In this document: piece by piece, positions 5,388-63,373 of the stretch
How the letters are laid out: each line of letters begins with the position of its first letter
Position numbering within the stretch: position 1 is the stretch's first letter
Source of the DNA: Thermoanaerobaculia bacterium
GTDB taxonomy: Bacteria; Acidobacteriota; Thermoanaerobaculia; UBA5066
Assembly: GCA_048500275.1 (NCBI GenBank)
Contig: JASNYI010000002.1
Coordinates: 347,936-411,935, forward strand
DNA length: 64,000 bases
Reading direction: 5' to 3'
The notes under the pieces: model-generated
Seen by the model: only the letters and a program-made list of their open reading frames with translations
What the model was told of the DNA's origin: nothing
Database searches by the model: none
Translations under genes and position numbers: made by a program

Positions 5388-5528
5388 CCTCGGCTCCTCG
5401 GTGCGGAATGGGACAGTTTAGTCCCGCCAGGGGCCGGAGGAGCACGGCGTTACGCTCGAGGCGCCCGCCGCCGACGCGCGTAAGCTCACGAGGACCGGTG
5501 CCCCCTGGAAACGGGGAGGAGGACGACG

Positions 5529-6401
5529 ATGGCCGAGCCGATCGCGGTACTCGACGCCCACGGAAAGCACGCGCAGCGCGCCCTCTTCACGGCCGACGGG
5601 GAGACCCTCGTCACGTGCGGACAGGACGCCCGCATCCGACTCTGGAAGGTCCCGGGGTTCGCGCCCGACGGCGCCTTCGAGGGGCACGCGGCGTGCGTGA
5701 ACACACTCGCCTTCTCGGCGGACGGTGCGCTCCTGGCGAGCGGTTCCTCCGACGGGACGGTGCGGATCTGGTCGTTCCCGGGCGGGCGCGAGCTGGACGT
5801 CCTGGACGGCCAGCTGACGGCCGCGGTCTCGCCGGCCGGCGGCTTCGCAACCATCTCGACGAAGGCCCGGGCCGTCCTCTGGGACGGGAACTACGACGAG
5901 GTCGCGACGCTGCCGCTCCTCGACCGGCGCCTCTTCTCGCTCGTCTTCACGGCGGACGGCGCGGCGCTTCTCGTGGCCGGAACGGGGGCGGTCCACCGCG
6001 TCGACGTGAAGGGGCGGGCGAAGGCGGGAGAGTACGCGGGCCACCAGACGGCCGTGGCTTCCATGGCGCTCTCCCCGGACGGCTCGCTCCTGGCGACGAC
6101 GGGGGCGGAAGGCGCTCTGCGGGTGCGCCGCGTCGCGGGCGGTGGAGAGCTCTTCGCGGTCCGGCTGGGCCGGCTCGGGACGATGCAGGCGGCGTTCTCG
6201 CCCGACGGGGCCCGGATCGCGGTCTCCATCGACTTCGGGATCCAGCTCCGGTCGGCGGCCGACGGAGCGCTCCTCTCGACGCTCGACGTGCCGATCAAGG
6301 GGGTCTACGGGCTCGGCTGGTCGCCCGACGGCCGCTTCCTCGCGAACGCGGGGGCTGACGGCCGGGTGCGGGTCTGGGAGATCGGGCCCGCGAGCCGCTA
6401 G
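5529..6401 (+). CDS. WD40-repeat (beta-propeller) protein
   Basis: Repeated GH...SxDGxxLAS/TxGxDGxxRxW units (about 7 blades). Good Shine-Dalgarno site GGAGGAGG upstream. Confidence 0.85.
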   Translation: MAEPIAVLDAHGKHAQRALFTADGETLVTCGQDARIRLWKVPGFAPDGAFEGHAACVNTLAFSADGALLASGSSDGTVRIWSFPGGRELDVLDGQLTAAVSPAGGFATISTKARAVLWDGNYDEVATLPLLDRRLFSLVFTADGAALLVAGTGAVHRVDVKGRAKAGEYAGHQTAVASMALSPDGSLLATTGAEGALRVRRVAGGGELFAVRLGRLGTMQAAFSPDGARIAVSIDFGIQLRSAADGALLSTLDVPIKGVYGLGWSPDGRFLANAGADGRVRVWEIGPASR

Positions 6402-6502
6402 ACTCCGTCGAGCCCTGCTCCGGAGGTGTCGAAGATGAGCTGCCCGGCGCGACGACAGTACCGGCCGGCCCCCGTCCCCGCGAGGACGGCGGCCGGACTC
6501 GC

Positions 6503-8449
6503 GTGAGCGCCGTCCCTCCGGGTGACGCCCGGAGGCGAGGGGCGCGATCGCTGCGCGAGGCCCGGCGCCTCGTCGGGCGCGCGGCCCAGGAGATCGCCGC
6601 AGCTCCGGCCGCCTGGGCGGGGGTGGTCGACAGGGTCCGTTCCCAGCTCGGCCGCCCGCCGCTTTCGCCCGACGCGGTCGCGGCGACGGGCTTCTCCCTC
6701 CTGTCCGCGGAGGAGGAGGGGCGCCCGGCGCTCCTCCCGCTCGACCGGCTCGAGCCCCTCGGCAAGGGGGGCATGAACACGGTATCGCGCTCGGCCGACC
6801 TCCTCGCGGGGCGTCCGCTCGTCGTGAGGCGCCTCATCCCGGCCGAATCGGCCGTCGAGGAGGAGATGCGCCGGCGCCGGAACGAGCTCGTGAGGGAGCG
6901 CCTCTCGGTCCTCCACCGCCACCCGGTCCTCCAGCGCTTCTGGGGGAGCGGCCTCGTCGACGGCGAGGCGTGCGAGCTCTTCGACTTCGCGCCCGGGACG
7001 ACGCTCTCGAGCTACGTCCGGGAACGGGGCCTCACGTACGGAGCCCTCCTCGACGTCGCCTGGCACGCCGCGCGGGGCCTCCTCCACCTCTCGCGCCACG
7101 GCCTCGTCCACGGAGACGTGAAACCGGAGAACTTCTGCGTCGAGGAGCGCCGGGTCTCGGGCGACGCGAGGCTGAGGGTGAGCCTCATCGACTTCGACAT
7201 CGTCTCGACCGTCGACGAGCAGCTCTACCAGTACCGCCTCTCGAACACGCTCGATGGCACGCTCCCGTACATGCCGCCGGAGAACTTCGTGCGCGAGGTC
7301 CCCGAGGATCCCGAGGAGTGCCGGCGGATGGTCCTGACGAAGGACGTCTACGCGCTCGGAATCACGCTCGTGCGGGTCGTGAACGGCCGGTTCCCGGAGG
7401 GCTTCTACACGAGCATGACGTCCCTCGTCCTCAAGAAGGAACGCCTGGAGGAGATGCCGGCCACACTTCCCGCGAGCCTGCCGGAGGCGCTTCGGAGCCT
7501 CGTGCTCTCGATGTGCCGGACCGGCTGGCGCGAGCGCCCGCCGCTCCCGGTCGTCGTCCGTTCGCTGGAGGCGCTCCGACGATCGGCGACGGCGCAGGAG
7601 AGGGCCCGCCTCGTCGCGGCGCCCCGGGTCGAGGCGGCGGTCGAAGCGCCCCCGTCTGAGCCCGTGGAGCTCGTCGGGCCGTACCGGCTCGTCGATCGGG
7701 CCTTCGCCGCCCGGATGCCGGGCGACGGGCAGTCGCGGCCCCTCGCCGAGCTGCACGACCCGTTCGGGAGGAGGCTCGTCGGCGTCCCCTACGAGTTCCG
7801 TTCCGCCCGGGAGGAGGGAGAGTTCTACGAGGCGCGCCGGGCTCTGCTCGGCGACCTGAACGCCGTCCGTCTCCGGCACCCCCAGCTCTTCCCGGGGAGC
7901 TTCCGGGACCTCGTCCGGCAGGGCGTCGGCGACGACCTCTTCCTCGTCTGGGTCATTCGGCCCCTTCTCGACGGGGCGATCGACCTCGATCGGTACCTCT
8001 CCGAGGAGCGGCCCGACGCCTCGCTCGCGGAGAGGGTCTCGATCCTGCGGCGCGTGGCGGAAGCCCTCGCGGCCCTCGAGGAGGCGGGGTACACGCTCGC
8101 GGCGCTCACGCCGCAGCTCGTCTTCTTCGTACCGCCGCCGGAGGAGGCGGGGAGCGAGCCGTCGCCGACGCAGGCGGGTCTGACGCGCCCGGTGGCGGCC
8201 CTCTTCGACATCCCGGCCCCGGCGGGACGCCGGTTCCGGCAGGAGCTGATGGGGACCGCCTCGGCGGTGAAGGCGGCGCCGGAGGCGACGGGGCGCATCG
8301 TGGCCGGCTTCTTCGACGTCGCGACGAGGATGCGGGTCCTCTCGGCGCTCGCCGGCACGGAGAAGGAGGCCTTCCTGCAGGTCAGCGACGCCCAGAGCTG
8401 GGCGGAACGGGTCGACCTCCTCCGCTGGATCGAGACCCGCCTGCGCTGA
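6503..8449 (+). CDS. Ser/Thr protein kinase with a ~300-aa C-terminal extension
   Basis: Glycine loop LGKGGMNTV and catalytic loop HGDVKPEN. Listed start is GTG. The C-terminal half is of unknown function. Confidence 0.8.
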   Translation: MSAVPPGDARRRGARSLREARRLVGRAAQEIAAAPAAWAGVVDRVRSQLGRPPLSPDAVAATGFSLLSAEEEGRPALLPLDRLEPLGKGGMNTVSRSADLLAGRPLVVRRLIPAESAVEEEMRRRRNELVRERLSVLHRHPVLQRFWGSGLVDGEACELFDFAPGTTLSSYVRERGLTYGALLDVAWHAARGLLHLSRHGLVHGDVKPENFCVEERRVSGDARLRVSLIDFDIVSTVDEQLYQYRLSNTLDGTLPYMPPENFVREVPEDPEECRRMVLTKDVYALGITLVRVVNGRFPEGFYTSMTSLVLKKERLEEMPATLPASLPEALRSLVLSMCRTGWRERPPLPVVVRSLEALRRSATAQERARLVAAPRVEAAVEAPPSEPVELVGPYRLVDRAFAARMPGDGQSRPLAELHDPFGRRLVGVPYEFRSAREEGEFYEARRALLGDLNAVRLRHPQLFPGSFRDLVRQGVGDDLFLVWVIRPLLDGAIDLDRYLSEERPDASLAERVSILRRVAEALAALEEAGYTLAALTPQLVFFVPPPEEAGSEPSPTQAGLTRPVAALFDIPAPAGRRFRQELMGTASAVKAAPEATGRIVAGFFDVATRMRVLSALAGTEKEAFLQVSDAQSWAERVDLLRWIETRLR

Positions 8450-8659
8450 AGCGCGGCGGGCCGGGGCCGGGGGTCGAGGCCCCGGCCGGGAGGATAACGA
8501 TGCCCCGGCGTCCCGGCCCTCTCTAGAGGAGAGAAGAGGTTGGGTGGGACGAGGTGTGGACCTGAGTGGAAGGCGGAATGGTGCGGAAGTGCGGGAGGTG
8601 GGTCGGGACGGGACTCCTCCGCCAGGTCCGGGAGCCGGGGCAGCGATACGTCGACAGGT

Positions 8660-8917
8660 TCAAGCGAGCCTCCGTGCGGACGCCGGAGCGGGGGCGCGGA
8701 GACTCGCCTTCTGGAGGCGCGGGTCGAGGGAGTCGGCGAAACGGTCGAACTCGAGCGGGTCGAGCGCGGCGAGGGTCGAGACCTCGGCAGGCGTCAGCTC
8801 GAGGCCTCGCTCCGCGAGGGTCCGTACGACCCGTGCCGGGCCGGACCGGAACTCACGCCGGAAGTCCTCGTCCGTGGCGAGCCTTCCGACGATCCGTTCC
8901 ACGTTGGCCTGCGACAT
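8660..8917 (-). CDS. Small Nif11 / NHLP-leader-like domain protein (85 aa)
   Basis: MSQANVERIVGRLATDEDFRREFRSGPARVVRTLAERGLELTPAEV matches the Nif11/NHLP leader pattern (MSQ..L..F...V..D..L...L.....P..VV.IA...G..IT.EEL). GGAG ribosome-binding site 11 nt upstream. No Cys/Ser/Thr-rich core follows. Confidence 0.5.
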   Translation of the reverse strand: MSQANVERIVGRLATDEDFRREFRSGPARVVRTLAERGLELTPAEVSTLAALDPLEFDRFADSLDPRLQKASLRAPAPASARRLA

Positions 8918-9143
8918 CCGCTTCGCTTCTCCGTGACGTGCATGTCAAGGGCCGTGCCAGCCCTCGCAGGAGGGGCCGGGGACGGCCTGACGCGCACGGT
9001 TGTCGACCGGAGCCGCGCCGCCGGCGCCCCCGGGTGAACCTCGCCCGTGCGTCGAAGGCTTCAATCTGTAGAATTCCCCGCACCGCAGCGGCGGGCGGCC
9101 GAGCCGGCGCGTTCCCCGAGCCGCCCCGCGCGTAGGAGGAATC

Positions 9144-57538: not shown

Positions 57539-57793
57539 ATGGCCAATCCCGCCTGGAAGGTCGCGTCGGACCTCACCGAGGGGTACCTCACGCTCAACAG
57601 CGTGATGCTGAAGAAGTACGAGCCGCACGAGCTCGTCGCGCTCCAGACCGAGCTCGACCGGGCCGCCCGCGAGATCCGGGGCACGGTCGTCCCGCAGGAC
57701 GACCTCGAGGCGAGCCAGAAGAAGAACCGCAAGCTCCTCCGGATCTCCCAGGCGATGACCGTTCTCAACGCGAGCCGGACGCGGGGACGGTAG
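57539..57793 (+). CDS. Small hypothetical protein (84 aa)
   Basis: Strong GC3 periodicity and balanced (not Arg-biased) composition in an otherwise gene-free 400-nt spacer. Confidence 0.5.
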
Positions 57794-57836: not shown

Positions 57837-59140
<1,304 letters not shown>

Positions 59141-59144
<4 letters not shown>

Positions 59145-61198
59145 GCGAGCTCCCGAAGGTCCGGGCGGCGCTCGACCGGATCGACGCGGCCCTCCTCGAC
59201 CTCCTCGCGGAGCGGTCGGCCGTCGTGGACGAGGTGGCGGCGCTCAAGAGCCGCGAGCAGGGGCTCCTCCTCAGGGACCTCGAGCGCGAGCGCGACCTCC
59301 TCTCCCGGGTGGGGAAGGAAGCGCAGAAGAGGGGCCTCAACGCCTTCCACGTCGTCCGGATCTTCCGCGACGTCGTCGAGGCCTCCGTGCGGCAGCAGGA
59401 GAGCCGGCTGACCCGTACGGCGAACGAGGAGGAGGCCGAGCCGGCCCTCCTCCGGGTCGCGTTCCAGGGGAGCGAGGGGGCCTACAGCCACCTGGCGGGG
59501 CGCAGGTTCTTCGCCGACCGGGCCGAGGAGCCGATCTTCGTCGGCTACCGCTCGTTCCGGCAGGCGGTCGAGGCGGTGGAGCGCGAGGAGTGCGAGTTCG
59601 GCATCCTCCCGCTCGAGAACTCCGTCGCCGGGAGCATCAACGAGACCTACGCCCTCCTCGGCGTCTCGAAGCTCTCCATCGTGGGGGAGGAGGTCTGGCC
59701 GGTCGAGCACTGCCTCCTCGGGCTCGGGAAGGCCCCGCTCGCCCGGCTCCGGCGGATCTACTCGCACCCCCAGGCCCTGATGCAGTGCTCGGAGTTCCTC
59801 GAGAGCCTCCCCGGCGCCACGGCCGAGAGCTTCTTCGACACGGCCGGGGCCGTCCAGAAGGTGAAGGAGCTCGGGAGCGAGGAGAACGCCGCCATCGCCT
59901 CGGCCGAGGCGGGGGAGCTTCACGGCCTCGTCGTCCTCCGGCGCGCCATCGCGAACCAGCGCAGCAACCAGACCCGCTTCGTCGTCGTCCACAAGCGGCC
60001 GTTCCGGTTCGACCCGAGGATCCCCTGCCGGACCTCGCTCCTCCTCGTCACCGACCACCGGGAGGGGGCCCTCGAAAGGTGCCTCGCCGAGCTCGCGAGG
60101 GCCGGCATCAACATGACGAAGCTCGAGAGCCGGTCGATGCCGGCGACGCCCTGGGAGTACCAGTTCTACGTCGACATCGAGGGGAACGTCGAGGAGGCGC
60201 GCGTCGTGGCGGCGCTCGAGGGGATCGGCCGGAACGCCCGGTACCTGCGCGTCCTCGGCTGCTACCCGAGGAAGGCGGACCCCTCCCGCGACGTGCCGAA
60301 GGACGTCGACCTGCTGCCGGAATCGCCGGGACCGGCGCCGGACCCGGCGGGGACCCCCGTGCCGGCAGAGAGCGGAATCGCCTACCCGCTCACCGCCCGG
60401 CGGTCCGCGGAACCCGAGGCGAGGACGCACGTCAAGGTCGGCGACATCGTCTTCGGCGACGGGTTCGTCGTCGTCGCGGGCCCCTGCGCGGTCGAGAGCG
60501 AGGAGCAGGTCTTCGAGGCGGCGCGGATCGTCCGGGAGGGGGGCGGGCGCGTCCTGCGCGGAGGGGTCTTCAAGCCCCGCACGAGCCCGTACTCGTTCCA
60601 GGGCCTCGGATTCGCCGGCCTCGACATCCTCTGCCGGGCGGGCCTCGAGTACCAGCTCCCGGTCGTCACCGAGGTCGTCGCCCCGGAGGACGTCGAGCGG
60701 GTCGCCGAGTTCGCGGACATGCTCCAGGTCGGCGCGCGCAACATGCAGAACTTCGCCCTGCTGAAGGCGGTCGGCCAGAGCTCGAGACCCGTCCTCCTGA
60801 AGCGGGGGATGATGTCGTCCGTGGAGGAGCTCCTGCTCGCGGCCGAGTACGTCCTCTCGGCGGGGAACCGCTCCGTCGTCCTCTGCGAGAGGGGCATCCG
60901 GACGTTCGAGACCTCGACGAGGAACACGCTCGACCTCGGCGCGGTGCAGGCGATCAAGGCGAAGTCCCACCTGCCCGTCATCGTCGACCCGTCCCACGCG
61001 ATGGGCGTGACCGCGTTCGTGGCGCCGATGGCCCGGGCCGCGCTCGCCGCCGGGGCCGACGGCGTGATCGTCGAGGTCCACCCGCGGCCCGAGGAGGCGC
61101 TCTGCGACGGGCCGCAGGCGCTCACGCCGGCGCTCTTCGGGGCGATGATGGGAGACCTCCGCCGGATGGCGCAGGCTCTGGGGGTCCGGATATGGTGA
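59141..61198 (+). CDS. Four-domain fusion: chorismate mutase, prephenate dehydratase, ACT domain and type I-beta DAHP synthase
   Basis: N-terminal AroQ CM helix bundle. PDT core (ESRP-like TRF motif, [14 protein letters not shown]). C-terminal 3-deoxy-7-phosphoheptulonate synthase ([16 protein letters not shown]). The GTG start overlaps the asnS stop. Confidence 0.8.
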
Positions 61199-61947
61199 AG
61201 ACGGAGCGGGAAGAGAAGGAAGGCCTGCAGACCGCCACGGAGCCCGATCCGATGCGCGAGACGGTGGCCCGCATCTTCGACTCGACCGGAGAGGCGTACG
61301 ACGGGATCGTCGACAGGGCGACGGCCGGCGAGGACTTCCGCTGGAAGTGCCGGATGCTCGAGCTCCTTCCCCCGCCGCGCCGGGTCCTCGACCTGGCCTG
61401 CGGGACGGGGATCCTGACGGGCCTCATCCTCGAGCGCTTCCCGGCCTGCCGGGTGGTCGGCGTGGACGTGACGGAGGAGTACCTCGCCGTCTCCCGCAGG
61501 AGAGCCTCCGAGCGCGCCGACGGCCGGGTCGAGCTGCTTCTCGGGCGGGCCGAGGACGCCCCGTGGGGCGACAGGACCTTCGACGCCGCCGTCTCCTGCT
61601 ACCTCCCGAAGTACGCCGACCGGCCGCGCCTCGTCGCGGCCCTCGGCCGCGCGCTCGAGCCGGGAGGGACTCTCCTGCTCCACGATTTCACGCTTCCCTC
61701 GTCCCCCGCGGTCCGCCAGGTCTGGGAGAAGCGCTGGGCCGGCCTGCGCGACGAGGCCGCGCGCCACCTTCCCGGCGCGGTCGCGATGATGGAGCTGGCG
61801 CCGCGGGTGGTTGCCGAGGAGCCGTGGGTGGACGACCTCCTGGCTCTCCTGCCGGTCGCCGGCTTCGAGGAGGTCGGGGTGGAGCGTCTTTCCATGGGGA
61901 CGGCCGCCATCGTGAAGGCCCGTCGCGCGTCCGGGCCCCGCCGATGA
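61192..61947 (+). CDS. Class I SAM-dependent methyltransferase (UbiE/COQ5-like)
   Basis: Motif I LDLACGTGILT. The start overlaps the upstream stop (ATGGTGA). Confidence 0.7.
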   Translation: MVKTEREEKEGLQTATEPDPMRETVARIFDSTGEAYDGIVDRATAGEDFRWKCRMLELLPPPRRVLDLACGTGILTGLILERFPACRVVGVDVTEEYLAVSRRRASERADGRVELLLGRAEDAPWGDRTFDAAVSCYLPKYADRPRLVAALGRALEPGGTLLLHDFTLPSSPAVRQVWEKRWAGLRDEAARHLPGAVAMMELAPRVVAEEPWVDDLLALLPVAGFEEVGVERLSMGTAAIVKARRASGPRR

Positions 61948-62020: not shown

Positions 62021-63373
62021 ATGCCCGTGAAGCTCCCCTCCGTAGGAATCGTCTCGCTCGGCTGCCCGAAGAACCTCGTCGACACCGAGGTGATGCTCGG
62101 CTACCTCGAGCGCGAGGGGCTGGCCCTCGGCGACCCGGAGTCGTCCCGGGTCGTCATCGTCAACACCTGCGGCTTCATCGACCAGGCCAAGGAGGAGTCG
62201 GTGAACGCCGTCCTCGAGCAGGTGCGGCGCAAGGAGGCGGGGGAGGTCGACCGCGTCGTCGTCGCGGGGTGCATGGTCCAGAAGTACGGCGCGGAGCTGG
62301 CGGCGGAGATCCCCGAGGTGGACCACTTCCTCGGCCTCGACGACCTCGAGAAGGCCCCGGCCGCGGCGCTCGGCCTTCCGTCGCTGCCGCGATTCACGGC
62401 CAAGCCGCTCGCCACTCGCCTCTACGACGACCTCGCGCCGCGGGTCCTGACGGGCCGCCGCGGCTACGCCTACCTGAAGGTGGCCGAGGGGTGCAACAAC
62501 CCCTGCACCTTCTGCACGATCCCGCAGATGCGGGGCCTCCAGCGCTCCCGGAGCGTCGACTCGCTCGTCCGCGAGGCGCGGTCGCTCGAGGCGCAGGGTG
62601 TCGTCGAGCTCGTCCTCATCTCGCAGGACACGACCCGCTACGGCGAGGACGTCGGGCTGGGCCGCGAGGGGCTCGCGACGCTCGTGAAGGCCCTCGTCGC
62701 CGGTACCGGGTTCCCGTGGATCCGGTTCCTCTACGCCTACCCGAAGACCCTGCACGACTCGGTCCTGCGGCTCATGGCCGAGGAGCCGCGCTTCGTGCCG
62801 TACGTCGACATCCCCCTCCAGCACGTCTCGCGCGGGGTCCTCGCGGCGATGCGCCGCGGGGGCGACCCGGGGACGTACGCCCGGATGTTCGCCGGGATGC
62901 GAGAGACGGTTCCCGGCATCGCGCTGAGGTCGACGTTCATCGTCGGCTTCCCCTCCGAGACGGACGCCGACTTCGACGAGCTCCTCTCTTTCGTGAAGGA
63001 GGTCGAGCTCGACCACCTGGGCGTCTTTCCCTACTCGCCGGAACCCGGCTCGGGGGCGGAAGCGCTGGGCGACCCGGTCCCGGCCGAGGTGAAGAGCGAG
63101 CGCTGCGCCGCCGTGATGGAGGCGCAGCGCGGGATCTCCCGGCGGAAGAACCGGGCGCTGAAGGGGAAGGTCCACGAAGCGATCCTCGAAGGCGTCTCGA
63201 CCGAGTCGGAGCTCCTCCTCGAGGGACGGCTGAGGCGGCAGGCTCCGGAGATCGACGGGAAGCTCCTCGTCAACGACGTCCCGGAGGGATTCGTGCCGCG
63301 TCCCGGCGCCGTCGTGAAGGTCCGCGTGACCGAGGCGCACGACTACGACCTCGTGGGGCGCGTCGTCGCCTGA
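62021..63373 (+). CDS. rimO: Ribosomal protein S12 methylthiotransferase
   Basis: MTTase N-domain, radical-SAM CNNPCTFC, TRAM domain. Confidence 0.85.
   Translation: MPVKLPSVGIVSLGCPKNLVDTEVMLGYLEREGLALGDPESSRVVIVNTCGFIDQAKEESVNAVLEQVRRKEAGEVDRVVVAGCMVQKYGAELAAEIPEVDHFLGLDDLEKAPAAALGLPSLPRFTAKPLATRLYDDLAPRVLTGRRGYAYLKVAEGCNNPCTFCTIPQMRGLQRSRSVDSLVREARSLEAQGVVELVLISQDTTRYGEDVGLGREGLATLVKALVAGTGFPWIRFLYAYPKTLHDSVLRLMAEEPRFVPYVDIPLQHVSRGVLAAMRRGGDPGTYARMFAGMRETVPGIALRSTFIVGFPSETDADFDELLSFVKEVELDHLGVFPYSPEPGSGAEALGDPVPAEVKSERCAAVMEAQRGISRRKNRALKGKVHEAILEGVSTESELLLEGRLRRQAPEIDGKLLVNDVPEGFVPRPGAVVKVRVTEAHDYDLVGRVVA

Follow-up and report, generated by a model that had tools for sequence, protein, structure and literature searches.

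DAHP synthase (DAH7PS) is a standard model for allostery built by adding domains to a catalytic barrel. The enzymes of Aeropyrum pernix and Pyrococcus furiosus are unregulated, and that of Thermotoga maritima is gated by an N-terminal ACT domain. Grafting of the T. maritima ACT domain onto an unregulated barrel reportedly created regulation; an entry titled 'chimeric DAH7PS' (PDB 4grs) was among our structure matches. In the DAH7PS forms described in PMC8408635, the added domain is either ACT-like or a chorismate mutase (CM). In the Geobacillus, Bacillus and Listeria enzymes the gate is an N-terminal CM domain, which in the Bacillus type works mainly as a prephenate sensor, and in the DAH7PS-CM of Prevotella nigrescens and Porphyromonas gingivalis the domains are mutually dependent and the dimer forms through the CM (PMC8408635). 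In the protein described here, a whole regulated bifunctional enzyme occupies the position that is held by the ACT-like or CM domain in those forms. A single chain would unite the entry of the aromatic pathway, its branch point, the committed phenylalanine step and a phenylalanine sensor. The known pathway chemistry is unchanged by this fusion. Full-text literature searches retrieved no paper on the intact natural fusion and no bench study. The only mention of the arrangement that was found is a remark from 2005 on Shewanella oneidensis, whose aroQ-pheA is fused to a "bizarre" aroA(I-beta) pseudogene (Song, Bonner, Wolinsky and Jensen; PMC1173090).

An intact fusion gene in a housekeeping neighbourhood

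The window, i.e. the whole 64-kb stretch of DNA that was analyzed, contains the fusion gene and its neighbours as follows.

57837..59144, + strand: asnS (asparagine--tRNA ligase), upstream; NF003037 at 527 vs 414 bits, Pfam tRNA-synt_2 and tRNA_anti-codon
59141..61198, + strand: whole fusion gene, 685 aa, GTG start, TGA stop
59147..59425, + strand: AroQ-type chorismate mutase domain, residues 3-95; Pfam CM_2, PheA alignment, match to PDB 1ecm
59450..60010, + strand: prephenate dehydratase (PDT) catalytic domain, residues 104-290; Pfam PDT, matches to PDB 7alz and 2qmx
60026..60274, + strand: PDT-type ACT regulatory domain, residues 296-378; model fold, PheA alignment
60281..60382, + strand: Pro/Ala-rich flexible linker, residues 381-414; low pLDDT, variable
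60383..61195, + strand: type I-beta DAHP synthase, residues 415-685; N-terminal beta-hairpin and TIM barrel
61192..61947, + strand: UbiE-like SAM methyltransferase gene; Pfam Ubie_methyltran, Methyltransf_25
62021..63373, + strand: rimO/miaB-like radical-SAM methylthiotransferase gene, downstream; Pfam UPF0004, Radical_SAM, TRAM_2

Translation of 59141-61198, on a contig of 1.72 Mb, yielded 685 codons with a single terminal stop and no internal stop. The original prediction had read this frame as CM, PDT, ACT and I-beta DAHP synthase, in that order. Indeed, Pfam, NCBIfam, structure matches and an alignment to E. coli PheA agree on an AroQ CM, a PDT, an ACT domain, a ~35-aa Pro/Ala-rich disordered linker and an I-beta barrel; domain annotation recovered all four modules, the ACT domain below its Pfam cut-off but supported by other evidence. 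The GTG start codon lies within GTGA (59141-59144), where it overlaps the asnS stop. Homologues share this start position (MSELPKVR or MSDLP...), and use of the next in-frame start, codon 29, would cut off the catalytic residues Arg8 and Arg25.

A long frame of this kind could arise if an assembly, frameshift or gene-calling artefact merged separate pheA and aroF genes. In a related cluster, one metagenome contig has the gene split into pieces of 517 aa and 177 aa (P0278, P0277), and adjacent but separate genes occur in other lineages. Against an artefact, the identical 685-aa protein was found on at least 20 contigs; the eight contigs shown come from eight different SRA runs, with the same gene neighbours wherever the contig is long enough. 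No frameshift or stop separated the PheA and DAHP synthase parts in these independent assemblies. The same unbroken frame was present in 14 species-level relatives and in more than 100 clusters, and the motif Y-x-L-x-x-R at the junction of linker and barrel is kept in frame. GC3 amounted to 0.97-0.99 across the CM, PDT-ACT and DAHP synthase coding parts, 0.88 in the short linker and 0.93-0.96 in the neighbouring genes; being uniform and close to that of the neighbours, it gives no sign of a chimera. The AlphaFold model of the full-length protein had a mean pLDDT of 87, with disorder confined to the linker. With at least 20 contigs and at least eight independent runs yielding the identical protein, the fusion is neither a frameshift nor an assembly artefact; together with the uniform codon usage this rules out a merged gene, for which practically no chance is left. 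The four-domain fusion gene is intact and single.

The TGA stop of asnS and the GTG start of the fusion gene share 4 nt, and the ATG of the methyltransferase gene (61192) overlaps the fusion stop by 7 nt (ATGGTGA). Translational coupling had been proposed at both junctions. The two overlaps are real, but they are not conserved: the overlap with asnS is kept in 6 of 14 related species (in the other 8 there is a gap of ~92 to 200 nt) and that with the methyltransferase gene in none. Synteny of asnS and the fusion gene was seen in all 14 related species loci. The methyltransferase gene adjoins the identical fusion gene in 8 assemblies but was found in none of the 14 related loci, in which the fusion is directly followed by a rimO-like gene; as a conserved downstream neighbour the rimO/miaB-like gene was found in 13 of the 14, the remaining locus (L013) ending inside the fusion gene. 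Thus, the methyltransferase gene is lineage-specific and lies outside the conserved unit, and the neighbourhood is a housekeeping context conserved across 14 species. Within the 64-kb window neither aromatic-pathway neighbours nor a second copy of the fusion were found, and there was no conserved aromatic gene context in the Planctomycetota or Gemmatimonadota loci examined. A search for RNA regulators at the locus found neither an Rfam family nor a tRNA, and promoter-like sites or relevant terminators were absent as well.

Catalytic and regulatory modules compared with known enzymes

Residues 1-382 align end to end with E. coli PheA (386 aa) including its regulatory domain (residues 4-382 to PheA 7-386; 39% identity, E 1e-85), with the same order of mutase, dehydratase and Phe-binding ACT domain. 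E. coli PheA ends there, whereas the window protein runs on via a 35-aa linker into a complete DAHP synthase. The NCBIfam P-protein equivalog NF007910, which is tuned to close relatives of enteric PheA, scored 310.6 bits, below its cut-off of 577. The CM domain (CM_2 at residues 7-87, E 4e-18; aligned to PheA 7-97) is modelled by AlphaFold as three helices at 4-38, 47-63 and 68-95. Its residues R8, R25, K36, D46, R49, E50, S82 and Q86 are identical in the alignment to E. coli R11, R28, K39, D48, R51, E52, S84 and Q88, the residues of the AroQ active site, and all eight are invariant or at least 90% conserved among 115 fusion proteins. The PDT domain (Pfam match at 106-286, E 9e-55) gave Foldseek TM values of ~0.86 to 7am0, 6vh5 and 2qmx. 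The TRF motif with the PDT threonine (T278-R279-F280) and residues E159, N160, S208 and Q215 are found at the same places in E. coli PheA and are also conserved across the family.

The Pfam ACT model PF01842 reached 17.8 bits at residues 309-362 (cut-off 27), and a few relatives do carry a precomputed match to it. The ACT module is confirmed by the alignment to the PheA regulatory domain, by matches of PDT-ACT crystal structures to residues 106-380 and by the modelled beta-alpha-beta-beta-alpha-beta fold at 296-376 (AlphaFold). Of the motifs GAL(E) 309-312 and ESR(S) 329-332, GAL (309-311) and ESR (329-331) are both kept, and G309, L311, E329, S330 and R331 are invariant in the 115 proteins. 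The fourth residue of each motif, E312 and S332, differs from E. coli PheA (GALV, ESRP). With GALE for GALV and ESRS for ESRP in the window clade, phenylalanine sensitivity may therefore differ from that of E. coli. Across the 115 proteins, which extend down to 48% identity, conservation covers the CM, PDT and ACT sites and all metal and PEP motifs of the DAHP synthase. In the window protein itself, no known motif for catalysis, metal binding or the Phe site is missing.

The barrel matches Pfam DAHP_synth_1 at residues 435-665 (E 3e-76) and passes the NCBIfam DAHP synthase models NF006421 (408 vs 335 bits) and TIGR01361 (366 vs 268 bits). Two KDO8P synthase models stayed below their cut-offs (116 vs 242 and 110 vs 314 bits), and an identity as KDO8P synthase or NeuB was rejected, the matches being below cut-offs or from related TIM-barrel families. 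C449, H619, E645 and D656 correspond, with an offset of 347, to T. maritima C102, H272, E298 and D309, the metal ligands. The PEP/phosphate motifs KPRT (478-481) and GARN (531-534) are likewise in place, their residues being invariant or conserved to at least 90% within the family. Comparison of the modelled barrel to 1vs1, 1zco and 3pg8 gave target-normalised TM values of 0.91-0.95 and rmsd values of 1.6-2.0 A; the strands of the beta-hairpin were modelled by AlphaFold at 431-433 and 436-438. The closest solved barrels are the unadorned DAH7PS of A. pernix (1vs1) and P. furiosus (1zco), with 60% and 55% identity and rmsd 1.6-1.8 A. These are free-standing enzymes, whereas the window barrel is fused; like them, it has no regulatory domain of its own, neither ferredoxin-like nor CM.

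T. maritima DAH7PS (1rzm, 3pg9) shares with the window protein the barrel subfamily, the metal ligands and an ACT-fold domain N-terminal to the barrel. However, its ACT-like domain is of the PF18152 (DAHP_snth_FXD) family, whereas the window ACT is PDT-type and has two extra catalytic domains attached. PF18152, which occurs in stand-alone and reverse-order relatives, had no match in the 685-aa protein, and the match to NF006421 begins only at profile position 75, past that domain. The window ACT is thus not a T. maritima-type ferredoxin-like domain, and the protein lacks the FXD domain directly before the barrel that marks ACT-regulated DAH7PS of this type. The T. maritima linker is short (between the end of FXD near residue 66 and the start of the barrel match near 73), the window linker being 2-5 times longer. 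An AroQ CM also lies N-terminal to an I-beta barrel, in one chain with it, in the CM-DAH7PS (AroA(G); 3nvt, 5j6f) of Bacillus subtilis, Listeria and Geobacillus. In these the CM sits directly on the barrel, whereas 320 residues of PDT, ACT and linker (104-414) separate the two in the window protein, which places it outside the Bacillus type. NF009239, the model for bifunctional CM-DAHP synthase, gave 367 bits against a cut-off of 279, a pass that is due only to the matching domains at both ends; several relatives are named bifunctional DAHPS/CM by NCBI. The P. nigrescens and P. gingivalis enzymes also pair pathway entry covalently with the branch point but have the opposite order and neither PDT nor ACT.

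The linker had pLDDT values below 50 at residues 381-411 (AlphaFold) and shows 12% identity to distant members; Ala and Pro make up 33% of its residues, and its length in the family is 28-68 aa (median 36). An AlphaFold model of ACT, linker and barrel (residues 296-685) gave a pTM of 0.71, approximately our estimate for independent domains, and thus no support for an ACT domain docked on the barrel. In a Foldseek comparison the ACT aligned with that of T. maritima in sequence order but not in orientation (388 columns over both domains, rmsd 8.8 A), i.e. the T. maritima arrangement of ACT and barrel is not reproduced. For the full-length model the pTM was 0.78, compared to our estimate of ~0.57 for independently placed halves, which hints at a defined contact between the halves.

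Distribution and other domain orders

The original prediction had called the four-domain arrangement unusual. This view had to be given up: among the 120 best clusters listed (90% identity), all 119 full-length proteins have the same architecture, the sole exception being a 445-aa fragment (P0021), and a library of 50%-identity representatives also holds dozens of clusters with the order CM-PDT-ACT-DAHPS. The fusion was found in Acidobacteriota (Holophagales/Thermoanaerobaculia, the lineage of the window), Gemmatimonadota, Planctomycetota and KSB1, and the family is abundant in these rarely cultured soil and water phyla. Database names of the proteins are only "DAHP synthase", "DAHPS/CM" or "CM/PDT". 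Annotation pipelines name only part of the protein, and therefore metabolic reconstructions may miss one or two activities. The fusion is real and common in uncultured bacteria, and is an uncharacterised variant of the known DAHP synthase fusions.

Other domain orders among the relatives were DAHPS-PDT-ACT, PDT-x-DAHPS-CM (P0215, P0223) and CM-PDT-DAHPS without ACT. The existence of several orders indicates that the advantage of fusion is independent of one geometry. An N-terminal ferredoxin-like domain was detected by our model, and is thus kept, in six complete reverse-order fusions (DAHPS-PDT-ACT); a seventh, P0149, has a 67-residue N-terminus without domain assignment. The window barrel is of the kind without its own regulatory domain, in contrast to these FXD-bearing fusions, which speaks for the trifunctional enzyme proposed below. 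Neighbour-joining trees were weak, with 63% bootstrap for one fusion clade.

Predicted activities and regulation

We propose that the gene encodes a single-chain trifunctional enzyme of primary aromatic amino-acid synthesis, with a probability of about 0.75. Judged from conserved residues, the three activities themselves (DAHP synthase, CM and PDT) are very probably all real. The C-terminal metal-dependent I-beta barrel would convert PEP and erythrose 4-phosphate to DAHP, and the N-terminal P-protein module would convert chorismate to prephenate (AroQ) and prephenate to phenylpyruvate (dehydratase). As in E. coli PheA, the ACT domain is predicted to bind L-phenylalanine and to feedback-inhibit the dehydratase. 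We are somewhat inclined to think that the chain assembles, by way of the barrel tetramer and the obligate dimers of CM and ACT, into an oligomer in which the barrel touches the P-protein module. By analogy to the N-terminal ACT or CM domains of other I-beta enzymes, phenylalanine at the ACT domain and/or prephenate at the CM site could also lower DAHP synthase activity, the N-terminal module being repositioned over the mouth of the barrel; we put this at a little under even odds. In function the fusion would then correspond to a Phe-sensitive DAHP synthase isozyme that is covalently joined to its branch.

The window barrel might already be a non-catalytic scaffold as in Shewanella, leaving functionally just a P-protein. 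The set of complete representatives with the same domain order (50% clusters of at least 600 aa) comprised 58 proteins; scoring of seven catalytic positions in our HMM alignment showed a degenerate barrel in ~38 of them, the close scorers P0121, P0124, P0130 and P0132 included. A Shewanella protein, WP_298768495.1 (654 aa), was among the relatives retrieved with the window protein and has the same domain order, but the Shewanella type of barrel lacks the metal ligands, KPRT and GARN, with 1 of 7 sites left, and is catalytically dead. The window barrel, by contrast, is intact: it retains all seven scored residues and every other invariant motif of the barrel, its bit scores exceed the curated cut-offs for DAHP synthase, and all 115 nearest cluster representatives likewise have an intact barrel. 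A dead window barrel is thus very unlikely. The dehydratase, on the other hand, might use arogenate, or both substrates, with an aminotransferase step between CM and dehydratase. PDT and arogenate dehydratase are indistinguishable by sequence, and a study from 2026 assigned the determinants to several ACT-domain residues and stressed that in-silico assignment is hard (PMC13217925). Prephenate is favoured by the CM fused directly upstream, by the 39% identity that E. coli PheA shows over its full length and by the bacterial context; an arogenate substrate is improbable.

How the trifunctional enzyme is regulated is a separate matter. The original prediction took the fusion to imply direct allosteric coupling to phenylalanine, which does not follow: the ACT-barrel linker is long, disordered and unconserved, and the undocked ACT domain of the model also speaks against a regulated fusion. 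Allosteric coupling of the DAHP synthase to phenylalanine is plausible. It is conceivable that fusion provides only equal expression and co-localisation of pathway entry and phenylalanine branch, with a barrel as unregulated as the unadorned P. furiosus and A. pernix enzymes and with phenylalanine controlling dehydratase and mutase alone. This would fit the variable linker, the position of the ACT domain off the barrel in the two-domain model, the permuted architectures and the similarity of the barrel to the unadorned A. pernix enzyme above all others; in Desulfobacterota-type loci (L025, L050), an unadorned barrel of this kind is encoded separately, next to pheA. Such independence is hard to reconcile with the dead barrels kept on many P-proteins, the full-length pTM exceeds our estimate for independent halves, and in all characterised I-beta enzymes that carry an additional N-terminal domain, this domain serves regulation (PMC8408635). 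We regard an unregulated barrel as a serious possibility, short of an expectation.

The many relatives that keep the barrel after losing all its catalytic residues, Shewanella PheA included, suggest that the barrel has a second, structural role and also matters to the P-protein. Tentatively, the barrel might serve as catalyst and as oligomerisation or allosteric hub, ACT-sensed phenylalanine and/or prephenate at the CM site controlling the DAHP synthase via contacts of barrel and P-protein. If true, this would add another mode of I-beta DAH7PS regulation beside the ferredoxin-like/ACT and the N- and C-terminal CM domains. The family would also form a natural gradation between a trifunctional enzyme and a pseudoenzyme scaffold, the latter represented by Shewanella-type PheA, with the barrel inactivated repeatedly. 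If the cell has no DAHP synthase other than the fusion, regulation by phenylalanine alone would starve tyrosine and tryptophan synthesis.

Domain composition and reading frame of the fusion gene

The original prediction had described one chain joining chorismate mutase (CM), prephenate dehydratase (PDT), ACT and a type I-beta DAHP synthase (DAHPS) barrel. This composition was right, since domain scans, together with further evidence for ACT, recovered each of the four modules within the coordinates given (Pfam, NCBIfam, PheA alignment, structures and AlphaFold).

Modules and sites of the 685-aa protein encoded at 59141-61198 (+), in residues
7-87, CM_2, Pfam E 4e-18
106-286, PDT, Pfam E 9e-55
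309-362, ACT, sub-threshold in Pfam (17.8 bits, cut-off 27)
381-414, linker between ACT and barrel
435-665, DAHP_synth_1, Pfam E 3e-76
R8, R25, K36, D46, R49, E50, S82, Q86, mutase site (aligned with E. coli R11, R28, K39, D48, R51, E52, S84, Q88)
E159, N160, S208, Q215 and the T278-R-F motif, dehydratase site, kept
309-312 GALE and 329-332 ESRS, ACT motifs (GALV and ESRP in E. coli)
C449, H619, E645, D656, barrel metal ligands (T. maritima C102, H272, E298, D309)
478-481 KPRT and 531-534 GARN, barrel motifs, present and conserved

Residues 4-382 are collinear with E. coli PheA over its whole length (39% identity, E 1e-85), and from residue 120 onward the residue numbers of the two proteins coincide. 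Crystal structures of PDT-ACT proteins matched residues 106-380, and residues 296-376 fold as beta-alpha-beta-beta-alpha-beta in the AlphaFold model. Alignment, structure matches and fold together establish the ACT module. We take the listed E. coli mutase residues and the E. coli equivalents of the dehydratase positions to be functional, and GALV and ESRP to be the Phe-site motifs of the PheA ACT domain. The C-terminal part exceeded the curated cut-offs of two NCBIfam DAHP synthase models; as a KDO8P synthase it scored well under the NCBIfam cut-offs, and this identity was rejected. The barrel matches T. maritima DAH7PS at an offset of 347, and C449, H619, E645 and D656 therefore coincide with what are presumably the metal ligands of that enzyme. 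It begins with a conserved Y-x-L-x-x-R, common to free-standing and T. maritima-type enzymes.

Across the family, identity is 35% in CM, 53% in PDT, 51% in ACT and 60% in DAHPS versus 12% in the linker, which has 28-68 residues (median 36), one third of them Ala and Pro. In the AlphaFold model of the window protein, linker residues 381-414 have a pLDDT below 50. The first three residues of both ACT motifs are invariant in 115 family members. Taken as a whole, the data show purifying selection on all the catalytic centres and on the Phe-site motif of this one chain. At residues 312 (nt 60074-60076) and 332 (nt 60134-60136), E and S replace the V and P of E. coli; ESRS is fixed throughout the Holophagales/Thermoanaerobaculia clade, and ESRP is kept in other phyla. 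Feedback sensitivity with the GALE and ESRS motifs may differ from that of the GALV/ESRP form.

Translation of 59141-61198 (+) gave 685 codons followed by one TGA. The start has to be argued, because in this 70% G+C DNA the stop-to-stop frame extends far upstream of 59141. The GTG at 59141 shares GTGA with the asnS stop and aligns with the position at which the homologues begin (MSELPKVR, MSDLPNVR). Starting at codon 29 instead, the next possibility in frame, would cost the mutase two catalytic arginines. GC3 is 0.97-0.99 in the CM, PDT-ACT and DAHPS parts, 0.88 in the short linker and 0.93-0.96 in neighbouring genes. NCBI and Logan assemblies contributed the exact 685-aa sequence to a public protein collection, and at least 20 contigs encode it; the eight listed contigs represent eight different sequencing runs, with the same neighbours wherever the contig is long enough. 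Fourteen species-level relatives (82-90% identity) share the unbroken frame. No stop or frameshift separates the PheA and DAHPS parts: independent assemblies keep the frame, and a resequencing check has thus in effect been run and passed. On a 5625-nt JGI contig in the cluster of relative P0005, the fusion appears as two pieces, a 'prephenate dehydratase' of 517 aa and a 'DAHP synthase' of 177 aa (P0277 and P0278). This is probably a sequencing frameshift, because each of the other full-length members listed for this cluster is one protein of 685 aa.

Genomic context and spread of the family

The genes around the fusion gene are of the housekeeping kind: an acyl-CoA dehydrogenase gene, asnS, a rimO-like gene and ribF. 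It is the only aromatic-pathway gene of the 64-kb window, which encodes neither another mutase or dehydratase nor a further barrel. Searches of the nearby DNA for Rfam families, tRNAs and promoter-like sites were negative. Both asnS and the methyltransferase gene listed below had been predicted to be translationally coupled to the fusion gene. The asnS-fusion-rimO order recurs at the loci of related species, 13 of which continue beyond the fusion gene and show rimO. Of 14 relatives, 6 have the asnS overlap; in the remaining 8 the two genes lie ~92-200 nt apart. Downstream and upstream lie:

61192-61947 (+), UbiE-like methyltransferase gene, overlapping the fusion stop by 7 nt
57539-57793 (+), 84-aa ORF just upstream of asnS

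A lineage-specific insertion, the methyltransferase gene adjoins the identical fusion gene in eight assemblies and is missing at all 14 loci of related species, where the rimO-like gene follows after ~100-130 bp. The 84-aa ORF is called as a gene in independent assemblies and has no Pfam family on record. In Planctomycetota and Gemmatimonadota, unrelated genes surround the fusion gene.

A word-indexed search returned 3512 relatives, and architecture was read on the best 120 clusters at 90% identity. The window's architecture was found at full length (659-714 aa) in 119 of these, the exception (P0021) being a 445-aa fragment; CM_2, PDT and DAHP_synth_1 matched in nearly all. By source name, the hosts are Holophagales and Thermoanaerobaculia (the lineage of the window; 82-98% identity), Gemmatimonadota, KSB1 and Planctomycetota (including Phycisphaerae and a Brocadiaceae bin). 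An exhaustive search of 50%-identity representatives gave the same picture at greater depth. 'Unusual', as the arrangement had been called, is thus overstated; because it recurs so widely among relatives, it is unstudied rather than rare. Among source names, NCBI uses '3-deoxy-7-phosphoheptulonate synthase' or 'bifunctional DAHP synthase/chorismate mutase' and JGI 'chorismate mutase/prephenate dehydratase'; no label covers all activities. Locus L034 ('Patescibacteria group bacterium', DASRAN010000057.1) is a high-GC contig with the full fusion, and its binning is probably wrong because Patescibacteria are unlikely to host aromatic biosynthesis. In four KSB1-type proteins of alignment A1 (P0028, P0029, P0044, P0100), mutase catalytic positions are substituted and the rest is intact: D46 is N in three, R49 is Q or L in all four, and R8 is sometimes changed. 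In these proteins the mutase may have lost part of its activity or may serve purely as a sensor.

Degenerate barrels among the relatives

Representatives of 50% clusters with the window's domain order were scored at seven catalytic barrel positions. The window protein keeps 7/7, and the barrel is intact in all 115 nearest 90% clusters. Of the 65 representatives, 13 have an intact barrel and 44 keep no more than two of the seven sites, several of these being C-terminal fragments that simply do not contain them; the other 8 are intermediate or fragments. By our own count, the 58 complete proteins (≥600 aa) comprise 13 intact, ~38 degenerate and 7 intermediate forms, in a tally by 50% clusters that overweights fast-evolving dead forms. 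Degenerate barrels have lost the metal ligands, KPRT and GARN and keep framework motifs such as HLPVIVDPS and a 10-residue motif; their mutase and ACT sites are intact, as are the dehydratase sites in nearly all. Examples, within the range P0121-P0270 and none in the window, are P0173 and P0209 (Myxococcota) and P0187 (Pseudomonadota). In the high-scoring relatives P0121, P0124, P0130 and P0132, KPRT, GARN or the metal cysteine is gone; these losses are not sequencing errors, because one of these clusters comprises nine members from separate contigs. Intact and degenerate forms interleave in an unsupported neighbour-joining tree of the P-protein half, which suggests repeated inactivation of the barrel. 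The dead barrel looks like a retained pseudoenzyme domain.

Full-text searches found no literature on an intact natural four-domain fusion, nor was experimental work on the family found in the literature. A specialist paper lists I-beta DAHPS regulation by N-terminal CM, C-terminal CM or ACT only (PMC8408635). The one precedent found, a 2005 remark, concerns a 'bizarre' aroA(I-beta) pseudogene fused to Shewanella pheA (PMC1173090); the dead-barrel relatives appear to be of this type, and a Shewanella protein of this kind is among the matches (P0206, WP_298768495.1, uncultured Shewanella). The family broadens an already known theme, the fusion of I-beta DAHP synthases to other domains, and the series from active enzyme to pseudoenzyme among the relatives is the main addition. 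Judged by its residues, the window protein has kept its catalytic sites; the family to which it belongs is large and known from sequence.

Predicted activities, control and other domain orders

Most likely the protein would make DAHP, prephenate and phenylpyruvate, and Phe would inhibit the dehydratase via ACT, as in PheA; we put the probability that all three activities are real at about 85%. Arogenate and prephenate dehydratases are not distinguishable by sequence (PMC13217925), but with a mutase fused directly upstream, prephenate is the likely substrate and arogenate improbable.

Direct allosteric coupling of the synthase to Phe had also been claimed. A defined contact between barrel and P-protein half is somewhat favoured, and ligand control of the DAHP synthase is a tentative proposal. 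All characterised I-beta enzymes with an N-terminal extra domain gate by it (PMC8408635). The full-length model has a pTM of 0.78 versus ~0.57 expected for two independently placed halves (our arithmetic on the pTM formula), and the persistence of dead barrels implies that the barrel is a structural partner. An ACT domain grafted onto an unregulated barrel reportedly sufficed to create inhibition; PDB 4grs was among the structure matches. Against control, the linker is long and floppy, alternative domain orders occur, ACT-linker-barrel alone gave a pTM of 0.71, near our estimate for independent domains, and the ACT orientation in T. maritima DAH7PS is unlike that in the fusion model. If the two halves do touch, the dehydratase or the mutase domain may therefore take part, and not ACT on its own.

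The best 150 representatives were classified with domain models from our own alignments, spot-checked against Pfam.

Domain orders among the best 150 representatives
CM-PDT-ACT-DAHPS (window's order), 65
PDT-ACT-DAHPS without mutase, 11, several being fragments
DAHPS-PDT-ACT (reverse order), 9, including P0149, P0151, P0156, P0163, P0180 and P0205
CM-PDT-DAHPS, 3, two truly without ACT (P0169, P0184)
PDT-x-DAHPS-CM, 2 (P0215, P0223)
ferredoxin-like-DAHPS-prephenate dehydrogenase-ACT, 1 (P0224)

A T. maritima-type ferredoxin-like domain at the barrel N-terminus, a regulatory domain belonging to the barrel itself, was detected in six complete reverse-order proteins; the seventh, P0149, has 67 N-terminal residues without domain assignment. 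Within the best 150, the domain is absent from all proteins with a P-protein module in front. Fusion barrels form one clade (only 63% bootstrap) in a neighbour-joining tree of the barrel domain, and they probably, though not demonstrably, arose once from an unadorned barrel; the distribution of ferredoxin-like domains is therefore no independent sign of functional replacement.

In the Desulfobacterota-type loci L025 (5944-8044) and L050 (5872-7895), an unadorned 280-aa I-beta DAHPS gene immediately precedes a separate CM-PDT-ACT pheA; this pair is the counterpart of the fusion, unfused and with the order reversed. Locus L030 resembles them, with ORFs ambiguous in high-GC DNA. At L026 (Anaerolineae, 5524-9078), a PDT-ACT gene with an AroH-like N-terminus precedes two tandem T. 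maritima-type DAHPS genes. At L031 (Acidobacteriota, 368-2133), a 251-aa PDT frame without ACT stops just past the TRF motif and overlaps the start of a T. maritima-type ferredoxin-like-DAHPS gene.
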